Shown here in pieces: positions 8,207 through 58,716 of a stretch of 64,000 nucleotides of DNA. The stretch is from the NCBI GenBank assembly GCA_964016885.1, contig OZ024763.1:7006001-7070000 (forward strand). The letters run 5' to 3'. Position numbers and translations under genes: made by a program. The stretch's first letter is position 1; each line of letters begins with the position of its first letter. The stretch comes from Eledone cirrhosa. Taxonomy: Eukaryota. The notes beneath the pieces were generated by a model. That model was not told the DNA's origin, made no database searches, and saw only the letters and a list, made by a program, of their open reading frames with translations.

Positions 8207-8266
<60 letters not shown>

Positions 8267-8393
8267 AAAGTTTTATTTAAAATTGTTGGGTTACAACGAG
8301 TAAATATTTTATAACTGATATAAAGCACTCAACAAGTTTTGGAGTAGATATACGATATTAAACAAATGGAAACTATATTTATAAAACCATATT

Positions 8394-8459
8394 TATTTCA
8401 TTATACATATTTCAGGGATACCATATTAAAAATATGGCATGCCTTCTTCAGATAAAATA
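8394..8459 (-). ncRNA. Minimal type I hammerhead ribozyme (left arm)
   Basis: Minus strand: stem I TATTTTAT/ATGAAATA, core CTGAAGA, stem II AGGCATGCCATATT-TTT-AATATGGTATCCCT, GAA, stem III ATATGTAT, cleavage nucleotide A. Confidence 0.8.
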
Positions 8460-8603
8460 CAATATATAAGCAGTTTTATAAATAAATTTGACGTACCATA
8501 GAATATTCATCAACTTCCATTTAAAAAAGTTGGTTTTTTTAAATGGAAGTTGATGAATATTCCATGGTACGTCAAATTTATTTATAAAACTGCTTATATA
8601 TTG

Positions 8604-8669
8604 TATTTTATCTGAAGAAGGCATGCCATATTTTTAATATGGTATCCCTGAAATATGTATAATGTAATA
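8604..8669 (+). ncRNA. Minimal type I hammerhead ribozyme (right arm)
   Basis: CTGAAGA 8612-8618, stem II 8619-8649, GAA 8650-8652, ATATGTAT 8653-8660, A8661, stem I 3' strand ATGTAATA (one mismatch), overlapping AATAAA. Confidence 0.78.
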
Positions 8670-9091
8670 AATATAGTTTCCATTTGTTTAATATCGTATA
8701 TCTACTCCAAAACTTGTTGAGTGCTTTATATCGGTTATAAAATATTTACTCGTTGTAACCCAACAATTTTAAATAAAACTTTTGCATATATATATATATA
8801 TATAGGAGGGTCAGCTGAAAAGTTCATTGGTTGGACAAGATACTCTCATGGAATGATCAAATGAGGTTTATTCTTTCATGTGGCCATGCTGGGGCATCAC
8901 CTGGCAGAAACTTAGTATATCATATCAACCCCAATATTCTGTAATTGGTTTCAGCTATTAGACTGTGGCCATACTGGGACAGTGGCACCTTGAAGGGATT
9001 TAGCTTATCACACACACACACACACACTCATCTATATATATATATATATATATATACTCCCGATTGAACCCGGGATAAACATATATATATA

Positions 9092-13478: not shown

Positions 13479-13885
13479 CTATCTATCTATCTAAGGCGGG
13501 TAAAATTCCCGAGATCCATGGACGAGTTCTCTCCAGCGGTCTGTCTCTCATTATCGCTGCCATGTCCTGCATCTCCAACAGACCAGTGTCTGTCCTTAGG
13601 GCATCAACATACGTTAACCTTGGTCTTCCTCTTCTAGTGTGTCCATGTAGGGGCTCCCACAGGAGCACTGAGTGCAATGTCAACTCTGGATGTCGGTGAG
13701 CATGTCTAGCCAACCTCAGTCTCCTCTGTGTCACTTTTGAGCTGACTTTTGCTGTAGTGGTGTCTGTGCTGCTGTATGGGTCTGAGACTTGGACACTGAC
13801 CAAGAAACTCACTCAGATGGTGGATGGGTGCTACACGAGAATGCTGAGGATGGCTCTGAACATTAATCAGTATACACTGAGGATG
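13479..13885 (-). mobile_element. RTE-clade LINE (family 2) 3' fragment with 5' inversion
   Basis: 13493-13750 minus strand encodes [38 protein letters not shown]; 13751-13885 plus strand encodes [31 protein letters not shown]; (AGAT)n tail; flanking ATGGATATAT duplication. Confidence 0.9.
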
Positions 13886-18600: not shown

Positions 18601-18922
18601 ATCATCATCATCATCATACGTCCGCTTTTCCCTGCTTGCAAGGGTGGGACGGGAACAGATTCTGGCTTGATTTCTACAGCTGGATGCCCTTCCTAACACC
18701 AACCTCATTTACAGTGAGTGCTGGGTGCTTTTTTGCAGTGGCACCTCCACGATCACCACTTTGCAGTGGAATGATAGGGACCCCAGTCCCTATCATCTCA
18801 TTTCTGGAGCAATGTGAAATAAAGTGTCTTGCTCAAGGAAACAACACATCACCCGGTCTGAGAATTGAACTCACAATTTTTCGATTACAAGGCCAATGCT
18901 CTAACCACTAAGCCATGTGCCT

Positions 18923-18924
<2 letters not shown>
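18601..18924 (-). mobile_element. Chimeric tRNA/CORE-like SINE (family S2) with RTE-derived tail
   Basis: Near-identical to 55979-56312 with a short internal deletion in the CORE-like part. Confidence 0.9.
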
Positions 18925-18968
<44 letters not shown>

Positions 18969-21062: not shown

Positions 21063-21067
<5 letters not shown>

Positions 21068-21260
21068 AACGAGTAGGACCCCGACGGTTGAGCTCAAGCT
21101 GTTTCGACAGCTAATTCTGGACTAGTCCAGAATTAGCCGTCGAAACGGCTTGAGCTCAGCCGTCGGGGTCCTACTCGTTCCTATTACCCACTCTTCTACC
21201 CTAAGTATTGAGTACTTTGGTGCGTTATGGTCCACCTGGTTCCTTACCACATTTCCTTCG

Positions 21261-24474: not shown

Positions 24475-27403
24475 AAGAAATATCCAGATCGTCCTTGGCA
24501 CCAAATGATAATAATGATGATGATGATAATGGATAAAAAGTTATTTAATTAGGTCGGCAAGAAATATCCATAATATCCTTGGCACCAAATAATAATGTTG
24601 ATAATGGATAAAAAGTTATTAATTAGGTCAGCAAGAAATATCCAGAACATCCTTGGCACCAAATAATAATGTTGATAATGGATAAAAAGTTATTAATTAG
24701 GTCGGCAAGAAATATCCAGAACATCCTTGGCACCAAATAATAATGTTGATAATGGATAAAAAGTTATTAATTAGGTCGGCAAGAAATATCCAGAACATCC
24801 TTGGCACCAAATAATAATGTTGATAATGGATAAAAAGTTATTAATTAGGTCGGCAAGAAATATCCAGAACATCCTTGGCACCAAATAATAATGTTGATAA
24901 TGGATAAAAAGTTATTAATTAGGTCGGCAAGAAATATCCAGAACATCCTTGGCACCAAATAATAATGTTGATAATGGATAAAAAGTTATTAATTAGGTCA
25001 GCAAGAAATATCCAGAACATCCTTGGCACCAAATAATAATGTTGATAATGGATAAAAAGTTATTAATTAGGTCGGCAAGAAATATCCAGAACATCCTTGG
25101 CACCAAATAATAATGTTGATAATGGATAAAAAAGTTATTAATTAGGTCGGCAAGAAATATCCAGAACATCCTTGGCACCAAATAATAATGTTGATAATGG
25201 ATAAAAAGTTATTAATTAGGTCGGCAAGAAATATCCAGAACATCCTTGGCACCAAATAATAATGTTGATAATGGATAAAAGTTATTAATTAGGTCGGCAA
25301 GAAATATCCAGAACATCCTTGGCACCAAATAATAATGTTGATAATGGATAAAAAGTTATTAATTAGGTCGGCAAGAAATATCCAGAACATCCTTGGCACC
25401 AAATAATAATGTTGATAATGGATAAAAAGTTATTAATTAGGTCGGCAAGAAATATCCAGAACATCCTTGGCACCAAATAATAATGTTGATAATGGATAAA
25501 AAGTTATTAATTAGGTCGGCAAGAAATATCCAGAACATCCTTGGCACCAAATAATAATGTTGATAATGGATAAAAAGTTATTAATTAGGTCGGCAAGAAA
25601 TATCCAGAACATCCTTGGCACCAAATAATAATGTTGATAATGGATAAAAAGTTATTAATTAGGTTGGCAAGAAATATCCAGAACATCCTTGGCACCAAAT
25701 AATAATGTTGATAATGGATAAAAAGTTATTAATTAGGTCGGCAAGAAATATCCAGAACATCCTTGGCACCAAATAATAATGTTGATAATGGATAAAAAGT
25801 TATTAATTAGGTCGGCAAGAAATATCCAGAACATCCTTGGCACCAAATAATAATGTTGATAATGGATAAAAAGTTATTAATTAGGTTGGCAAGAAATATC
25901 CAGAACATCCTTGGCACCAAATAATAATGTTGATAATGGATAAAAAGTTATTAATTAGGTCGGCAAGAAATATCCAGAACATCCTTGGCACCAAATAATA
26001 ATGTTGATAATGGATAAAAAGTTATTAATTAGGTCGGCAAGAAATATCCAGAACATCCTTGGCACCAAATAATAATGTTGATAATGGATAAAAAGTTATT
26101 AATTAGGTCGGCAAGAAATATCCAGAACATCCTTGGCACCAAATAATAATGTTGATAATGGATAAAAAGTTATTAATTAGGTCGGCAAGAAATATCCAGA
26201 ACATCCTTGGCACCAAATAATAATGTTGATAATGGATAAAAAGTTATTAATTAGGTCGGCAAGAAATATCCAGAACATCCTTGGCACCAAATAATAATGT
26301 TGATAATGGATAAAAAGTTATTAATTAGGTCGGCAAGAAATATCCAGAACATCCTTGGCACCAAATAATAATGTTGATAATGGATAAAAAGTTATTAATT
26401 AGGTCGGCAAGAAATATCCAGAACATCCTTGGCACCAAATAATAATGTTGATAATGGATAAAAAGTTATTAATTAGGTCGGCAAGAAATATCCAGAACAT
26501 CCTTGGCACCAAATAATAATGTTGATAATGGATAAAAAGTTATTAATTAGGTCGGCAAGAAATATCCAGAACATCCTTGGCACCAAATAATAATGTTGAT
26601 AATGGATAAAAAGTTATTAATTAGGTCGGCAAGAAATATCCAGAACATCCTTGGCACCAAATAATAATGTTGATAATGGATAAAAAGTTATTAATTAGGT
26701 CGGCAAGAAATATCCAGAACATCCTTGGCACCAAATAATAATGTTGATAATGGATAAAAAGTTATTAATTAGGTCGGCAAGAAATATCCAGAACATCCTT
26801 GGCACCAAATAATAATGTTGATAATGGATAAAAAGTTATTAATTAGGTCGGCAAGAAATATCCAGAACATCCTTGGCACCAAATAATAATGTTGATAATG
26901 GATAAAAAGTTATTAATTAGGTCGGCAAGAAATATCCAGAACATCCTTGGCACCAAATAATAATGTTGATAATGGATAAAAAGTTATTAATTAGGTCGGC
27001 AAGAAATATCCAGAACATCCTTGGCACCAAATAATAATGTTGATAATGGATAAAAAGTTATTAATTAGGTCGGCAAGAAATATCCAGAACATCCTTGGCA
27101 CCAAATAATAATGTTGATAATGGATAAAAAGTTATTAATTAGGTCGGCAAGAAATATCCAGAACATCCTTGGCACCAAATAATAATGTTGATAATGGATA
27201 AAAAGTTATTAATTAGGTCGGCAAGAAATATCCAGAACATCCTTGGCACCAAATAATAATGTTGATAATGGATAAAAAGTTATTAATTAGGTCGGCAAGA
27301 AATATCCAGAACATCCTTGGCACCAAATAATAATGTTGATAATGGATAAAAAGTTATTAATTAGGTCGGCAAGAAATATCCAGAACATCCTTGGCACCAA
27401 ATA
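24475..27403. repeat. 74-bp AT-rich satellite, ~39-40 highly homogeneous copies
   Basis: Unit aagaaatatccagaacatccttggcaccaaataataatgttgataatggataaaaagttattaattaggtcggc; period 74 (24781 to 24855). Confidence 0.98.
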
Positions 27404-27727
27404 AAAACAGAACTTGAATAACGATTAATGTAGGACCTGAATGGGAAGAAAGAAATCCTAAGACCCGTGCAGAGTGTGTGTGGGGTGTGGAGGTCTGAAT
27501 ATGGCAAAGTTCTTTCAGAGAAGGATAGAGAATGGAAGTGAGAGAGAGAGAGAGATATGGAGGAAAAATTGACCCCAGTACTAGAATGGTAACTCTTGAT
27601 GGAGTCGTGAGGGTGAAGACAAAACCAGGAGGGGTGGGGCTGGAGAAAATGTTCTAAAATGTAGTTTTCTGTAAATGTATAGTCTCTCTCTCTCTTTCTT
27701 TCTCTGTTTCTTTCTCTCTTTCTCTCT

Positions 27728-42813: not shown

Positions 42814-42863
<50 letters not shown>

Positions 42864-42866
42864 CAA

Positions 42867-42921
42867 ACTGCCTGAAGAGGTCACAGCCAAAGATGGCTGT
42901 CACTGAAATATATATAGCAGT
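42867..42921 (+). ncRNA. Minimal type I hammerhead ribozyme in a 110-bp insert between (TA)n tracts
   Basis: ACTGC-CTGAAGA-GGTCACAGCCA-AAGA-TGGCTGTCACT-GAA-ATATATAT-A-GCAGT-AATAAA; predicted cleavage after A42916. Confidence 0.88.
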
Positions 42922-42965
42922 AATAAACGAAGCTAAATTTTAATCATTTGACTTTTATTTAACTT

Positions 42966-43004
<39 letters not shown>

Positions 43005-45307: not shown

Positions 45308-45767
45308 ATATATATGTGTGTGTGTGTGTATATATGGCCATGAAACAGCACAAGGAGTTATATAGGTAGATAGACACACACACACACACACGTGTGTGTG
45401 TGTGTGTGTGTATAGTAGACATGATGGTTTAATGTGAAGTAATTTAAAATCTGTGAAACAGGAGCAGGAAAACCACTTTAATAATGACTGTATTTAATTT
45501 GATATAGTTCTATATTAGCTGGGGGCAATAGGGAGAGCCAGTTTTATATAATTACATTGTTGTTTGTATTATTTCAGTAAATATTATAGTCATATAGGTG
45601 TGGGGGATGGTAGGGGGTTACAGTACACGTGGGGGCTGGAAAATAGTTATGTGTGAAAATATGAGGAAATGGTTGTGGGTGTTATACAATGGAGAGATTA
45701 GTAAATTTGATAAAATCATGAAATAACTGAGAATTATAAATCCCTGGGGCTAGTAAAGAAATAATAA

Positions 45768-46300
45768 TTGTTTCTACTTTGGGCACAAGGCCAGCAATTA
45801 CCTCAGTACATTACTGGTACTTTATTTTATCGACCCCGTAAGGATGAAAGGCAAAGTTAACTTCGGGGGGGGATTTGAAGTCGGACCATAAAGGGGCGTA
45901 ACTCTATGCTGCAAAGCATGGCGTCCGACTCTCTACCGATACTGCCAATCCCCAATAATGATGATTATTATTATGGTGGATTGGCAGTAATCGGTAGAGC
46001 GTCAGACACCATGCTTGGTAGCATAGAGTTACGCCCCTTTAAGGTCTGAGATCAAATCCTGCCAAGGTTAGCTTTACCTTTTATTTTTATGAGGTTGATA
46101 AAATAAAGTACCAGTAATGTACTGAGGTAATTGCTGGCCTTGTGCCAAAAGTAGAAACATTATGTTGGTGGTGGATTAGCAGAACCAGTTCAATGTTGCA
46201 CAACATGCTTTGTGGCAGAGTTACGGCCCTTTACGATCTGAGTTCAAATCCCGCCGAGGTTAACTTTGCCTTTCATCCTTACGGGGTGGATAACATAAAG
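45768..46300. mobile_element. S1 SINE cluster: minus copy (45768-45952) head-to-head with plus copy (45974-46158), then a partial plus copy
   Basis: Each copy matches 14385-14571. Confidence 0.9.
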
Positions 46301-48962: not shown

Positions 48963-49535
48963 GTAGTTTTGAAGACCGGAAAAGCTGGGCTGGGCTGGCA
49001 TGGTTCATCAATTATAAGTATGCTGCACTAAATTACTCCTTTGAAAGTTCCCTGAAGACCAACATTTCACACACTACACCCCACCCCCCACCCTCCCTCA
49101 CACCACCCAACCATTACCCCCTAACCATTACCCCCTCCACTACCCCTACCACAATATAAAACAGCAGGGTAGAGAGATATAATCACTTGTGGTTAGGCAG
49201 TTCGATTTACTATTGCAAGGCCTTTGGTTCGACTCCTGGGTTTGGCCGGGCCAGTGTATAGTAGTGGCCTTGGGCAAGATTACTTTTCTACTTTTCATTG
49301 TATGGATTGAAGCCCTACCATTAAAATACTTGATAAACCCTCATGAGAGAGGGCAACCTTGTAGAAAGCCAGCTAAACCTGCAGAGTCGGGAGCTGTAAA
49401 TTTCACGCACACGCACACACACTCACACACTCACACACACACAATTGTTTCATTTATTGGCCACAAGGGCCTATCTATCTATATATAAATATACGATATA
49501 TTAACAAATGGAAACTATATTTATAAAACCATATT

Positions 49536-49600
49536 TATTTCATTATACATATTTCAAGGACACCAAGTTAAATTATGGTGTGCTTTCATCAGATAAAATA
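49536..49600 (-). ncRNA. Minimal type I hammerhead ribozyme in a Penelope-like pLTR fragment (~49490-49640)
   Basis: Minus strand: TATTTTAT-CTGATGA-AAGCACACCA..TGGTGTCCTT-GAA-ATATGTAT-A-ATGAAATA; flanks align to the 8.3-8.5 kb arm. Confidence 0.82.
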
Positions 49601-51088
49601 TAATATAGAACAGTTTTATAAATAAATATTGACATACCCTTAAATAAATATATATATACAGATAGATATATATATGACCAAAATTGCGGGAGGACTCAAT
49701 AAGGGTTGTATGTGTGGGTATATATATATTTGTGTGTGTGTGTGCGCACAAAAGCGGGATCTTTTGAAAAACACACACGCATACACATATATAAACACAC
49801 ATACAATCAATAACCACCCACAAAAGCATCTCTCTCTTTCTCTCACATCATTCTGTTTGTATTAGCGACTGTATAACACCTCACTCCAACCCCCTGCTCC
49901 GCCCAACCCCACTCTGAAGTGGTACCAACTACAACATGCTTCTTTGCCCATCTTAAAACATTAACCCTTTACACATCCACATTAAAAATAGCTGTATAAA
50001 TGTGTGTTTCTTCCCCCTCTCTCTCTCTCTCATTTTCTCTCTCTCTCTCTCTCTCATTTTCTCTCTCTCTCTCTCTCATTTTCTCTCTCTCTCTCTCTCA
50101 TTTTCTCTCTCTCTCTCATTTTCTCTCTCTCTCTCATTTTCTCTCTCTCTCTCTCTACACACACACATATACATATATACGCACGCACACACATGCTTCT
50201 GTTTTAACTCCAAGCATGGTTTGTTTTGGCAGCTCTCTGTGTGTGTATTTTATCCACCCCTCCCTACTCACCCTCATCTACACCCCACACTCATAAATAA
50301 TTGTATTAATTTACTGCCAACCTTGGCCTCATTCATTATCAGCAACATGTAATAGGAAGGAGGCAGGCATAGCTGTGTGGTTAAGCAGTTTATTTTGCAA
50401 CCATGTGGATCTGTGTAGTCAGTTAAAACCCTGTCTCTTCCTGTCATTGGAAGGGCAGGGACGTTTCTGCCAGGAGTTGTGACTGACACAGACAGTATCA
50501 GCAATAGAAAGACCTGACCCCATCTAATGGTCAACACCTTTCCTCTGCCAGGAGTTGTCACTGACAGACAGTATCAGCAATAGAAAGACCTGACCTCATC
50601 TAATGGTCAACACCTTTCCTCTGCCAGGAGTTGTCACTGACAGACAGTATCAACAATGGAGAGACTAACGGAATAGGTATTTCCTTGGTCTGATCACCCA
50701 TTTACCTAAGTTAACATCTTCTGACCCTTCCTTACACAGCGTTCCAGTTTTTACTAATGTTATTTCTAAGCAATAGCAATTAACGAATTTCTTTCATTAA
50801 TTCCACTGCTCCAGATTAACTGCTGTAATAATTAGTGTGTTATTTAAAGACATTCCTGCTAATTAGTGCTGAAAGCTCTTGTTAAGAAAATATCTCTGAA
50901 TGTCAACCAAATCTCACAGCAATACGCTGTCTCCTACTTGTCTTCTCTTATAATCGAATACATCTCGAGATTTATTGAAGCCTCTCAAGTATTTCAGCTT
51001 CAGCTATTTACCTGCTGTCATCATCATCATCTACACACACACACACACACACCAAGCATGGAAAATGGATGTTAAACAGTGATAATGA

Positions 51089-57110: not shown

Positions 57111-57371
57111 CTATTAATAATGAGTTCAAAACTCAGGCAGTCCTTTACAATGAAATAGCTCAAAGAAAGAAGTATTTCTGAGCCGTGTAATACAAGTTAA
57201 TATAAATTAATATATTTGATAAACACAAATACCAACATATCCGTGTTTGTATTGTAAATGTCTAAGTTAGCTAACTGTAAATGACAATCTAGCTAACTTA
57301 GTCATTTACAATACAAACACGGATATGTTGGTATTTGTGTTTATCAAATATATTAATTTATACTAACTTGT
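57111..57371. mobile_element. Fold-back insert in (TA)n: 81-nt tail plus palindrome with 82-bp arms
   Basis: Arms 57192-57273 and 57290-57371, 16-nt spacer. Confidence 0.65.
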
Positions 57372-58399: not shown

Positions 58400-58716
58400 G
58401 ATCGAGGACCCCCTTTGGTCACGAATTTCCATGGGATTTGCACCGAGAAAGTTTCCTTCCGAGGCACAAGTCCGGGCAAGGTTCCTTGTGAAAGACCTCC
58501 AGCCTCCCCTCTCCACGCCACCGATGTTGTCCAAGGGAAAGGCAATGGCTGATACAGCTTGGCACCAGTGGTGTCTCAACTCATTTCTACAGCTGAGTGA
58601 ACTGGAGCAACGTGAAATAGTGTCTTGCTCAAGGACAATGCAAAGCTTGGTCTGAGAATTGAACTCACAACCTTTTGATTGCCAGCCCAATGCTCTAACC
58701 ACTAAGCCATGCACCT
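58400..58716 (-). mobile_element. tRNA/CORE-like SINE sharing the S2 head but with a different 3' half
   Basis: Matches S2 from the head to ctcatttctacagctgag, then unrelated sequence (..gaggcacaagtccgggcaagg..). Confidence 0.8.

Follow-up and report, generated by a model that had tools for sequence, protein, structure and literature searches.

The 64-kb stretch of DNA analyzed here (the window) contains four motifs that by their anatomy are type I hammerhead ribozyme sequences and that are predicted to self-cleave only as dimers. The joint explanation toward which we lean is that these are dimeric hammerheads from the 3' ends of Penelope-like elements (PLEs), with covarying helices and with a C.C mismatch in stem II that was likely kept by selection. 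A structure-based scan of both strands placed the C3 residues of the four strict motifs at 8451 (-), 8612 (+), 42872 (+), and 49592 (-), compared with zero such motifs in each of 60 shuffled windows. Relaxing the scan added one site, at 13877 within a microsatellite, a count that is covered by the shuffle range of 0-2. All four motifs have the core CUGANGA plus GAA plus NUH with A15.1-U16.1, share an AUA cleavage site, and have stems I, II, and III placed around the core with stem I open, as in the type I layout. Stem I is 8 bp long in the motifs at 49.5 and 8.4 kb and 5 bp at 42.9 kb, and is broken at pair 4 in the motif at 8.6 kb; stem II has 10-11 positions, 9-10 of them paired, and stem III comprises 2-3 bp as a monomer and 8 as a dimer.

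The 49.5-kb motif occupies 49536-49600 on the minus strand, these coordinates being the exact ends of its stem I. In order, it consists of the 5' strand of stem I (positions 2.1-2.8, 49593..49600), which forms 8/8 pairs with 49536-49543; the catalytic core CUGAUGA (C3-A9, 49586..49592); the 10-position 5' arm of stem II (49576..49585, with the mismatched C at 49582); a 10-nt loop II (49566..49575) that varies between copies and in reads; the 3' arm of stem II (49556..49565, with the mismatched C at 49559 and U at 11.1); a segment at 49544..49555 made up of GAA, the 8-nt near-palindromic stem III AUAUGUAU (49545-49552), and A17 (49544); and the 3' strand of stem I (1.1-1.8, 49536..49543). From this anatomy, the predicted cut at the AUA site falls between 49544 and 49543. 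The other motifs are at 8394-8459 (-, C.C at 8441/8417), 8604-8669 (+, C.C at 8622/8646), and 42867-42921 (+, C.C at 42882/42901), the last having an 11-position stem II and a perfect stem III palindrome. Position 7 of the core is A in the 8.4- and 8.6-kb copies and U at 49.5 kb, just as the initial annotation had described it (CTGAAGA to CTGATGA). The stem I break of the 8.6-kb motif is a U.U at pair 4; the base change responsible (within 8653-8671, +) disrupts stem I in the AUA register and makes an alternative register possible, in which the site is GUA, the monomer stem III has 4 bp, and stem I has 5 bp; this is probably due to chance.

Stem II reads A-U, A-U, G-C, C.C, A-U, C-G, A-U, C-G, C-G, A-U at 49.5 kb; A-U, G-C, G-C, C.C, A-U, U-A, G.U, C-G, C-G, A-U at 8.4 and 8.6 kb; and G.U, G-C, U-A, C.C, A-U, C-G, A-U, G-C, C-G, C-G, A-U at 42.9 kb. 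The pair changes that the initial annotation had listed relative to the 8.4/8.6 copies are exact (pair 2 G-C to A-U, pair 6 U-A to C-G, and pair 7 G.U to A-U), and the C.C mismatch it had pointed out is found at pair 4 of every motif (49.5, 8.4, 8.6, and 42.9 kb) and is a real family trait. On the core side of the C.C loop helix II is a 3-bp stem, and beyond the loop it forms a distal hairpin; stem II with this loop belongs to the minimum-energy fold of every copy (z -2.0 to -3.0, the 42.9-kb motif having z -3.0). A C-G at pair 4 would stabilize stem II by 6.4-6.7 kcal/mol, putting the cost of the C.C at ~6.5. The purine 10.1-pyrimidine 11.1 closing pair is A-U (49.5, 8.4, and 8.6 kb) or G.U (42.9 kb) and never G-C. 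A coding role for stem II was rejected, the AUG in the 8.4-kb stem running into a stop after four codons.

The copies at 8.4 and 8.6 kb are the two arms of a single fold-back of 560 bp (93% alike, with identical stem II), and as such a duplicate they were counted once, giving three lineages in all. Between the 49.5- and 8.4-kb copies there are 5 changes over the 18 paired bases of stem II, 2 double-sided, and every pair is preserved; the simulated chance of this pattern is 0.026-0.029 with transitions only and 0.005-0.006 with two thirds transitions. The 49.5- and 42.9-kb motifs have double-sided changes at stem II pairs 2 and 3, with a simulated chance in the same range (0.005-0.03), and differ at 9/10 bases of stem I with 4 double-sided changes and zero broken pairs, a comparison that presumes homology of the two families (A, with the 49.5-, 8.4-, and 8.6-kb copies, and B, at 42.9 kb), between which BLAST itself shows no match. 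That families A and B are homologous is suggested by their having the core, the distal stem II, and the palindrome in common. The 42.9-kb motif had been called otherwise dissimilar, which is true of the BLAST comparison with 49.5 kb but not of stem II, where pairs 4-7 and the last three are identical. Stems I and III are, as had been claimed, kept between 49.5 and 8.4 kb, where they are identical, but this reflects descent rather than covariation, and stem I is broken in the 8.6-kb copy. Judged on these sequence comparisons, we consider the covariation to be real and stronger than was originally stated. For the helices, the pair-keeping changes support the accompanying proposal of structure under selection, but what the covariation records is selection on past active lineages of parent elements, not on the present fragments. 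The divergence is uneven, as 5/18 paired bases of stem II (49556-49585) differ between subfamilies vs. 2 changes and 1 gap in the 70 nt downstream (49486-49555), an excess hinting at mosaic copies or fast stem turnover.

Each motif sits in a fragment of 110-240 bp flanked by TA repeats, in a window whose DNA is microsatellite-rich and of animal type. The 49.5-kb fragment (family A subfamily 1, 49486..49646, -) lies between TA-rich microsatellites, shares 87% identity with 8345-8505 (163 aligned columns), and is likely the 3' end/pLTR of a PLE. It lacks the ~80-nt tail of the 8.4-kb copy, ending where that copy continues into the tail, as most read copies also do. The 8.4-kb motif is carried by a tailed subfamily 2 fragment (8264..8505, -), the inverted duplicate of which (8558..8785, +) has a 16-nt deletion and one stem I change. 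These make up the 560-bp fold-back (8245-8804), which lies between (TA)n tracts and has a hammerhead on each strand and the 16-nt deletion in its right arm. The family B fragment (42861..42971, +) is also located between (TA)n tracts. The window contains three further long palindromes (21063-21184, with arms 95% alike; 45764-46163, 85%; and 57192-57371, 94%), a tandem array at 24475-27407 with a 74-bp unit in roughly 40 copies ~99% alike, and an Rfam tRNA match at 58648-58715 (-, 32 bits vs. a threshold of 29) that is probably a tRNA-derived SINE, since it lies within a repeat also seen near 18804-18925.

In published accounts (PMC8557442, PMC11167929), PLEs target microsatellites, leave truncated and inverted copies, and may or may not carry a tail. 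All of these features are seen here, the truncation being at the 5' end, and the fold-back copy and the drop in read depth with strand-switch joints at 49644 also agree with the descriptions of PLEs. Of the RT plus GIY-YIG reading frame that a PLE has upstream of its pLTR hammerhead, no remnant was seen next to any copy: 76 window frames, chosen from 202 left after complexity filtering and from a few short frames, gave 0 Pfam matches. As no reading frame was found, we infer the PLE parent. The fragments are likely the 3' ends of PLEs inserted in TA microsatellites, and the parent probably belonged to the Hydra clade. That clade is recognized by protein motifs (RWK, DKT, CxCX5C) and RT phylogeny; the pointers to it here are only the (TA)n target, the U at 11.1, and, by eye, a likeness of the tail. 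That likeness concerns a weak hairpin of the family A tail (8326..8346, -, and 8703-8723, +), composed of RCUC, an inner stem-loop, a 2-nt bulge, and GAGY, then RCU; the same layout is seen by eye in the published tails of Hydra-2_Amil, Hydra-2_Ajap, and Hydra-1_Crog. The fold at 8326-8346 is not significant (-2.2 kcal/mol, z 0.43) and its loop varies in loose-end reads; besides the hammerhead, this hairpin may be another RNA element conserved in these PLEs. Read depth collapses at ~49644, where strand-switch joints cluster, and at 49639-49644 longer copies, seen as loose ends, extend upstream with a short self-complementary AACCG/CGGTT-like motif. Words of this kind also occur, by eye, upstream of some of the published Hydra-clade hammerheads (PMC8557442).

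The Hydra-clade hammerheads tabulated by Craig et al. (2021; PMC8557442, File S2), which include Hydra-1_oBim of Octopus bimaculoides, resemble the motifs described here in being type I, in having (TA)n targets (in nearly all families), in lying ~100-200 nt from the 3' end, and in their palindromic 8-10 nt stem III and frequent cleavage-site A. U directly precedes GAA in 18/26 of those rows, and here too U occupies 11.1; Penelope-13_HM and -17_HM have G.U closure, as at 42.9 kb. In contrast to the motifs here, stem II in those rows is 3-7 bp and fully paired, and a C.C was seen by eye in 0/26. Hydra-1_oBim carries another hammerhead, and in the published material the window sequences have no match in Hydra-1_oBim or in either of the two octopus Naiad consensi. 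An octopus Naiad parent was considered because the core search of the Naiad paper permitted only 7-17 nt spacers; it was rejected, with three of four probe words absent from the supplement (in which line breaks could hide a word) and the fourth inside a reading frame. For Naiad_Obim in particular, the printed 3' end is unrelated.

Likenesses to the minimal hammerheads and variants of PLEs whose alignment was printed by Cervera and De la Pena (2014; PMC4209133) include a long helix II, the lack of a loop-loop contact, and a dimer-forming palindromic helix III. The closest row is that of Drosophila willistoni, with an 8-nt palindrome, an AUA site, and U before GAA. The initial annotation was right that the closing pair is A-U or G.U and the site AUA, but neither is special, as published PLE hammerheads share both: by eye, the closing pair of helix II is G.U in 8 and A-U in 3 of the 56 rows (11 in all), and 2/56 have AUA. 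A U.U pair at 10.1-11.1 has been published as well (PMC3088659). An unpaired nucleotide between A9 and G10.1, a PLE-type trait, is absent from the motifs here, in which the base pairs with U11.1, and it is also missing in some of the published rows (PMC4209133, PMC8557442). The difference lies in helix II, which here has 10-11 positions and an internal C.C, a combination found in none of the 56 rows; a 1x1 mismatch at pair 4 occurs in two of them (U.U in Clonorchis 2 and C.A in S. purpuratus 1) and C.C in 0/56.

The absence of C.C from those 56 rows is partly a matter of ascertainment, because the printed PLE descriptor (PMC4209133) specifies a perfect 3-7 bp stem II and gaaannuh and cannot detect these motifs. 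The Rfam (release 15) hammerhead models have, by pattern, the same catalytic core as the motifs here, and gave no match at E up to 10 in the three regions searched; nor was a hammerhead family among the Rfam matches listed for the window (150 of 301). With a perfect-stem descriptor and no Rfam match, such motifs would be under-reported. Pattern scans for relatives found both stems in 0/160 stretches in one set (at least 112 metagenome plus 48 viral) and 0/60 in another (57 prokaryote-genome plus 3 viral), and family-specific scans of viral sequences gave no match. The literature searched, which does not extend to Repbase or to the PLE variants with dimer cleavage in Lunse et al. (2017), contained no description of a C.C mismatch in hammerhead stem II and none of such a motif among octopus or cephalopod hammerheads. 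The suggestion that the C.C is undescribed stands for this literature and for 82 published rows (56 + 26, by eye). As for the tertiary contact and the protein binding suggested with it, a base-specific contact with stem I is unlikely because the two families share almost no stem I bases, and protein binding is plausible as a hypothesis. Within this literature the C.C loop is the only new feature; A-U/G.U closure, AUA, and the dimer-type stem III are already published.

Variation among related copies was examined in public sequencing runs, nine of which, from six studies, contain the stretch, none being recorded as RNA. Related contigs number in the thousands, and the copy number is very high. 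Four runs were compared at 80% likeness, namely X1 (5012 contigs), X5 (51, with another organism label), X14 (27758 reads of a RAD library, which is locus-biased), and X10 (12), with a variant threshold of 3%. Among the variant rows listed (40 of 65), 10 sites are in helices and none falls in the catalytic core; 9/10 of these helix sites preserve pairing, either alone or through the partner's listed change, the remaining one being U11.1 to C, in X14 only. Within the same listed variants, pairs 2 and 6 each vary on both sides, in every case toward a restored Watson-Crick pair; the change at pair 5 produces a wobble, and three stem I sites retain pairing. A G-to-A variant in stem III perfects the palindrome, loop II sites vary, and in loose-end reads there are subfamilies in which pair 8 is mismatched as well. 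Both mismatched C residues read as G on the plus strand (49559 and 49582), and as no G-to-C change on that strand reached 3% in any of the four runs, the C.C is not repaired to C-G at that level or above. In X1 and X5 other sites explain every G-to-A and G-to-T place, which leaves both C residues unvaried in these two runs; in X14, one G-to-A and one G-to-T place are outside the variants listed. This constancy within family A has little power, as pairs 3, 7, 9, and 10 are likewise without a listed read variant, clipping of reads of the other subfamily within stem II hides linkage (the variant table itself having none), and the two X14 places are unlisted.

The four motifs are predicted to cut only as dimers. 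All 8/8 positions of stem III are self-complementary in each of the four motifs, giving the short palindromic helix III, which costs +4.7 kcal/mol as a monomer hairpin vs. -2.2 to -3.2 kcal/mol as a two-copy duplex (-2.2 at 49.5 kb). Co-folding of two 8.4-kb copies returned the double-hammerhead fold (one of three motifs), whereas 42.9-kb copies paired with each other only at stem III and 49.5-kb copies at neither stem. PLE hammerheads are reported to be dimer-dependent and weak (PMC4209133; reviewed in PMC6765202), one of them is reported to be protein-assisted and dispensable for insertion in vitro (PMC11167929), and AUA is a natural but slow cleavage site (PMC1636495). We propose that the parent element would be transcribed as a tandem, that the two copies would pair their 8-nt palindromes into stem III and exchange stem I strands to form the dimer fold, and that the dimer would then cut after AUA, with the C.C of helix II serving as a putative docking or hinge site, most plausibly for the element's own protein. 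The fragments in the window are probably solo, 5'-truncated products and inert, and the 8.4- and 8.6-kb copies, as a pair, would fold onto each other.

Two alternatives bear on the origin of the fragments and of their compensatory changes. We think it unlikely that each fragment is a monomer from a non-LTR retrozyme, which is non-autonomous and built of tandem 150-450 bp units, rather than an end of an autonomous PLE. Like the elements here, animal retrozymes are short, high-copy repeats that carry a type I hammerhead, and amphibian types cleave as dimers (PMC7229834); retrozymes exist in molluscs and have been argued to derive from PLE pLTRs (PMC7229834; bioRxiv 2026.07.22.740005), and both the lack of an ORF in the tested frames and the very high copy number in reads would fit. 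However, retrozymes as described have a tandem array and canonical loop 1/loop 2 contacts, neither of which is present here (PMC7229834), and canonical retrozyme hammerheads have a 4-bp helix II with loop-loop contacts (PMC4209133). No head-to-tail tandem of the unit was found in the window, only two small groups of backward joints were seen in reads, and the copies lie within (TA)n and end at different points on both sides. More improbable still is that the compensatory changes stem from correction of the hairpin at the DNA level (template switching between arms) or from mosaic recombination instead of selection on the RNA. The uneven divergence of the 49.5- and 8.4-kb copies noted above (~70 nt downstream of stem II being nearly unchanged) is in its favor, as is the capacity of the family to form fold-back insertions. 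Yet arm-to-arm copying should erase the C.C, which is sited between the changed pairs 2 and 6, and it sits poorly with the G.U pairs in stems I, II, and III, which are valid on the ribozyme strand only, with the covariation of stem I over a 45-nt span, and with a core invariant save for position 7.

The serious competitor accepts the same PLE hammerheads and takes the C.C to be a neutral, tolerated accident of their common ancestor, inherited together with a distal stem II that changes slowly, and we put its probability only somewhat short of even. The identity of pairs 4-7 and the last three between 49.5 and 42.9 kb indicates that this block may be little diverged or exchanged; there are only three lineages; the 1x1 mismatches at pair 4 noted above (U.U and C.A) demonstrate tolerance among the published PLE rows, and the loose-end variants add their own at pair 8; and weak activity is in any case reported for PLE hammerheads (PMC4209133). 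On the other hand, loop II, stem I, and pairs 1-3 have turned over almost completely between the families while both C residues stayed, and in X1 and X5 neither C-to-U nor C-to-G reaches 3%, though loop II varies. The chance of both C being kept by drift over the three lineages is roughly 0.014-0.19, under assumed rates chosen post hoc. Weighing these points, we lean modestly toward the C.C having been kept by selection, in a comparison that spans only three lineages.

As to what would be selected, a docking site for protein or an ion is our tentative first choice, tuning of stability or a hinge appears rather less likely, and an RNA tertiary contact is doubtful. Docking is ranked above the other two because C-to-U, inferred to destabilize about equally, was not seen. 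The element's own protein would be the most plausible partner of such putative docking, although the literature search on C.C loops as protein sites gave no usable precedent. It is conceivable, and we hold it no more firmly than docking itself, that the long helix II, C.C loop, and distal hairpin together form a docking site for a PLE protein or a new dimer tertiary module.

The finding adds a hammerhead family that standard searches (perfect-stem descriptors and Rfam) have missed, the kind of ribozyme itself being known. If the C.C is neutral, the motifs represent an ordinary transposon fossil. If it is selected, it would provide a natural site at which to test what PLE hammerheads do and why protein help seems to be needed. 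Should the docking or module reading be true, it would define a very abundant, cephalopod-type class of hammerhead missed by published descriptors and Rfam, and docking would offer a handle on why the weak hammerheads of PLEs need protein to cut.
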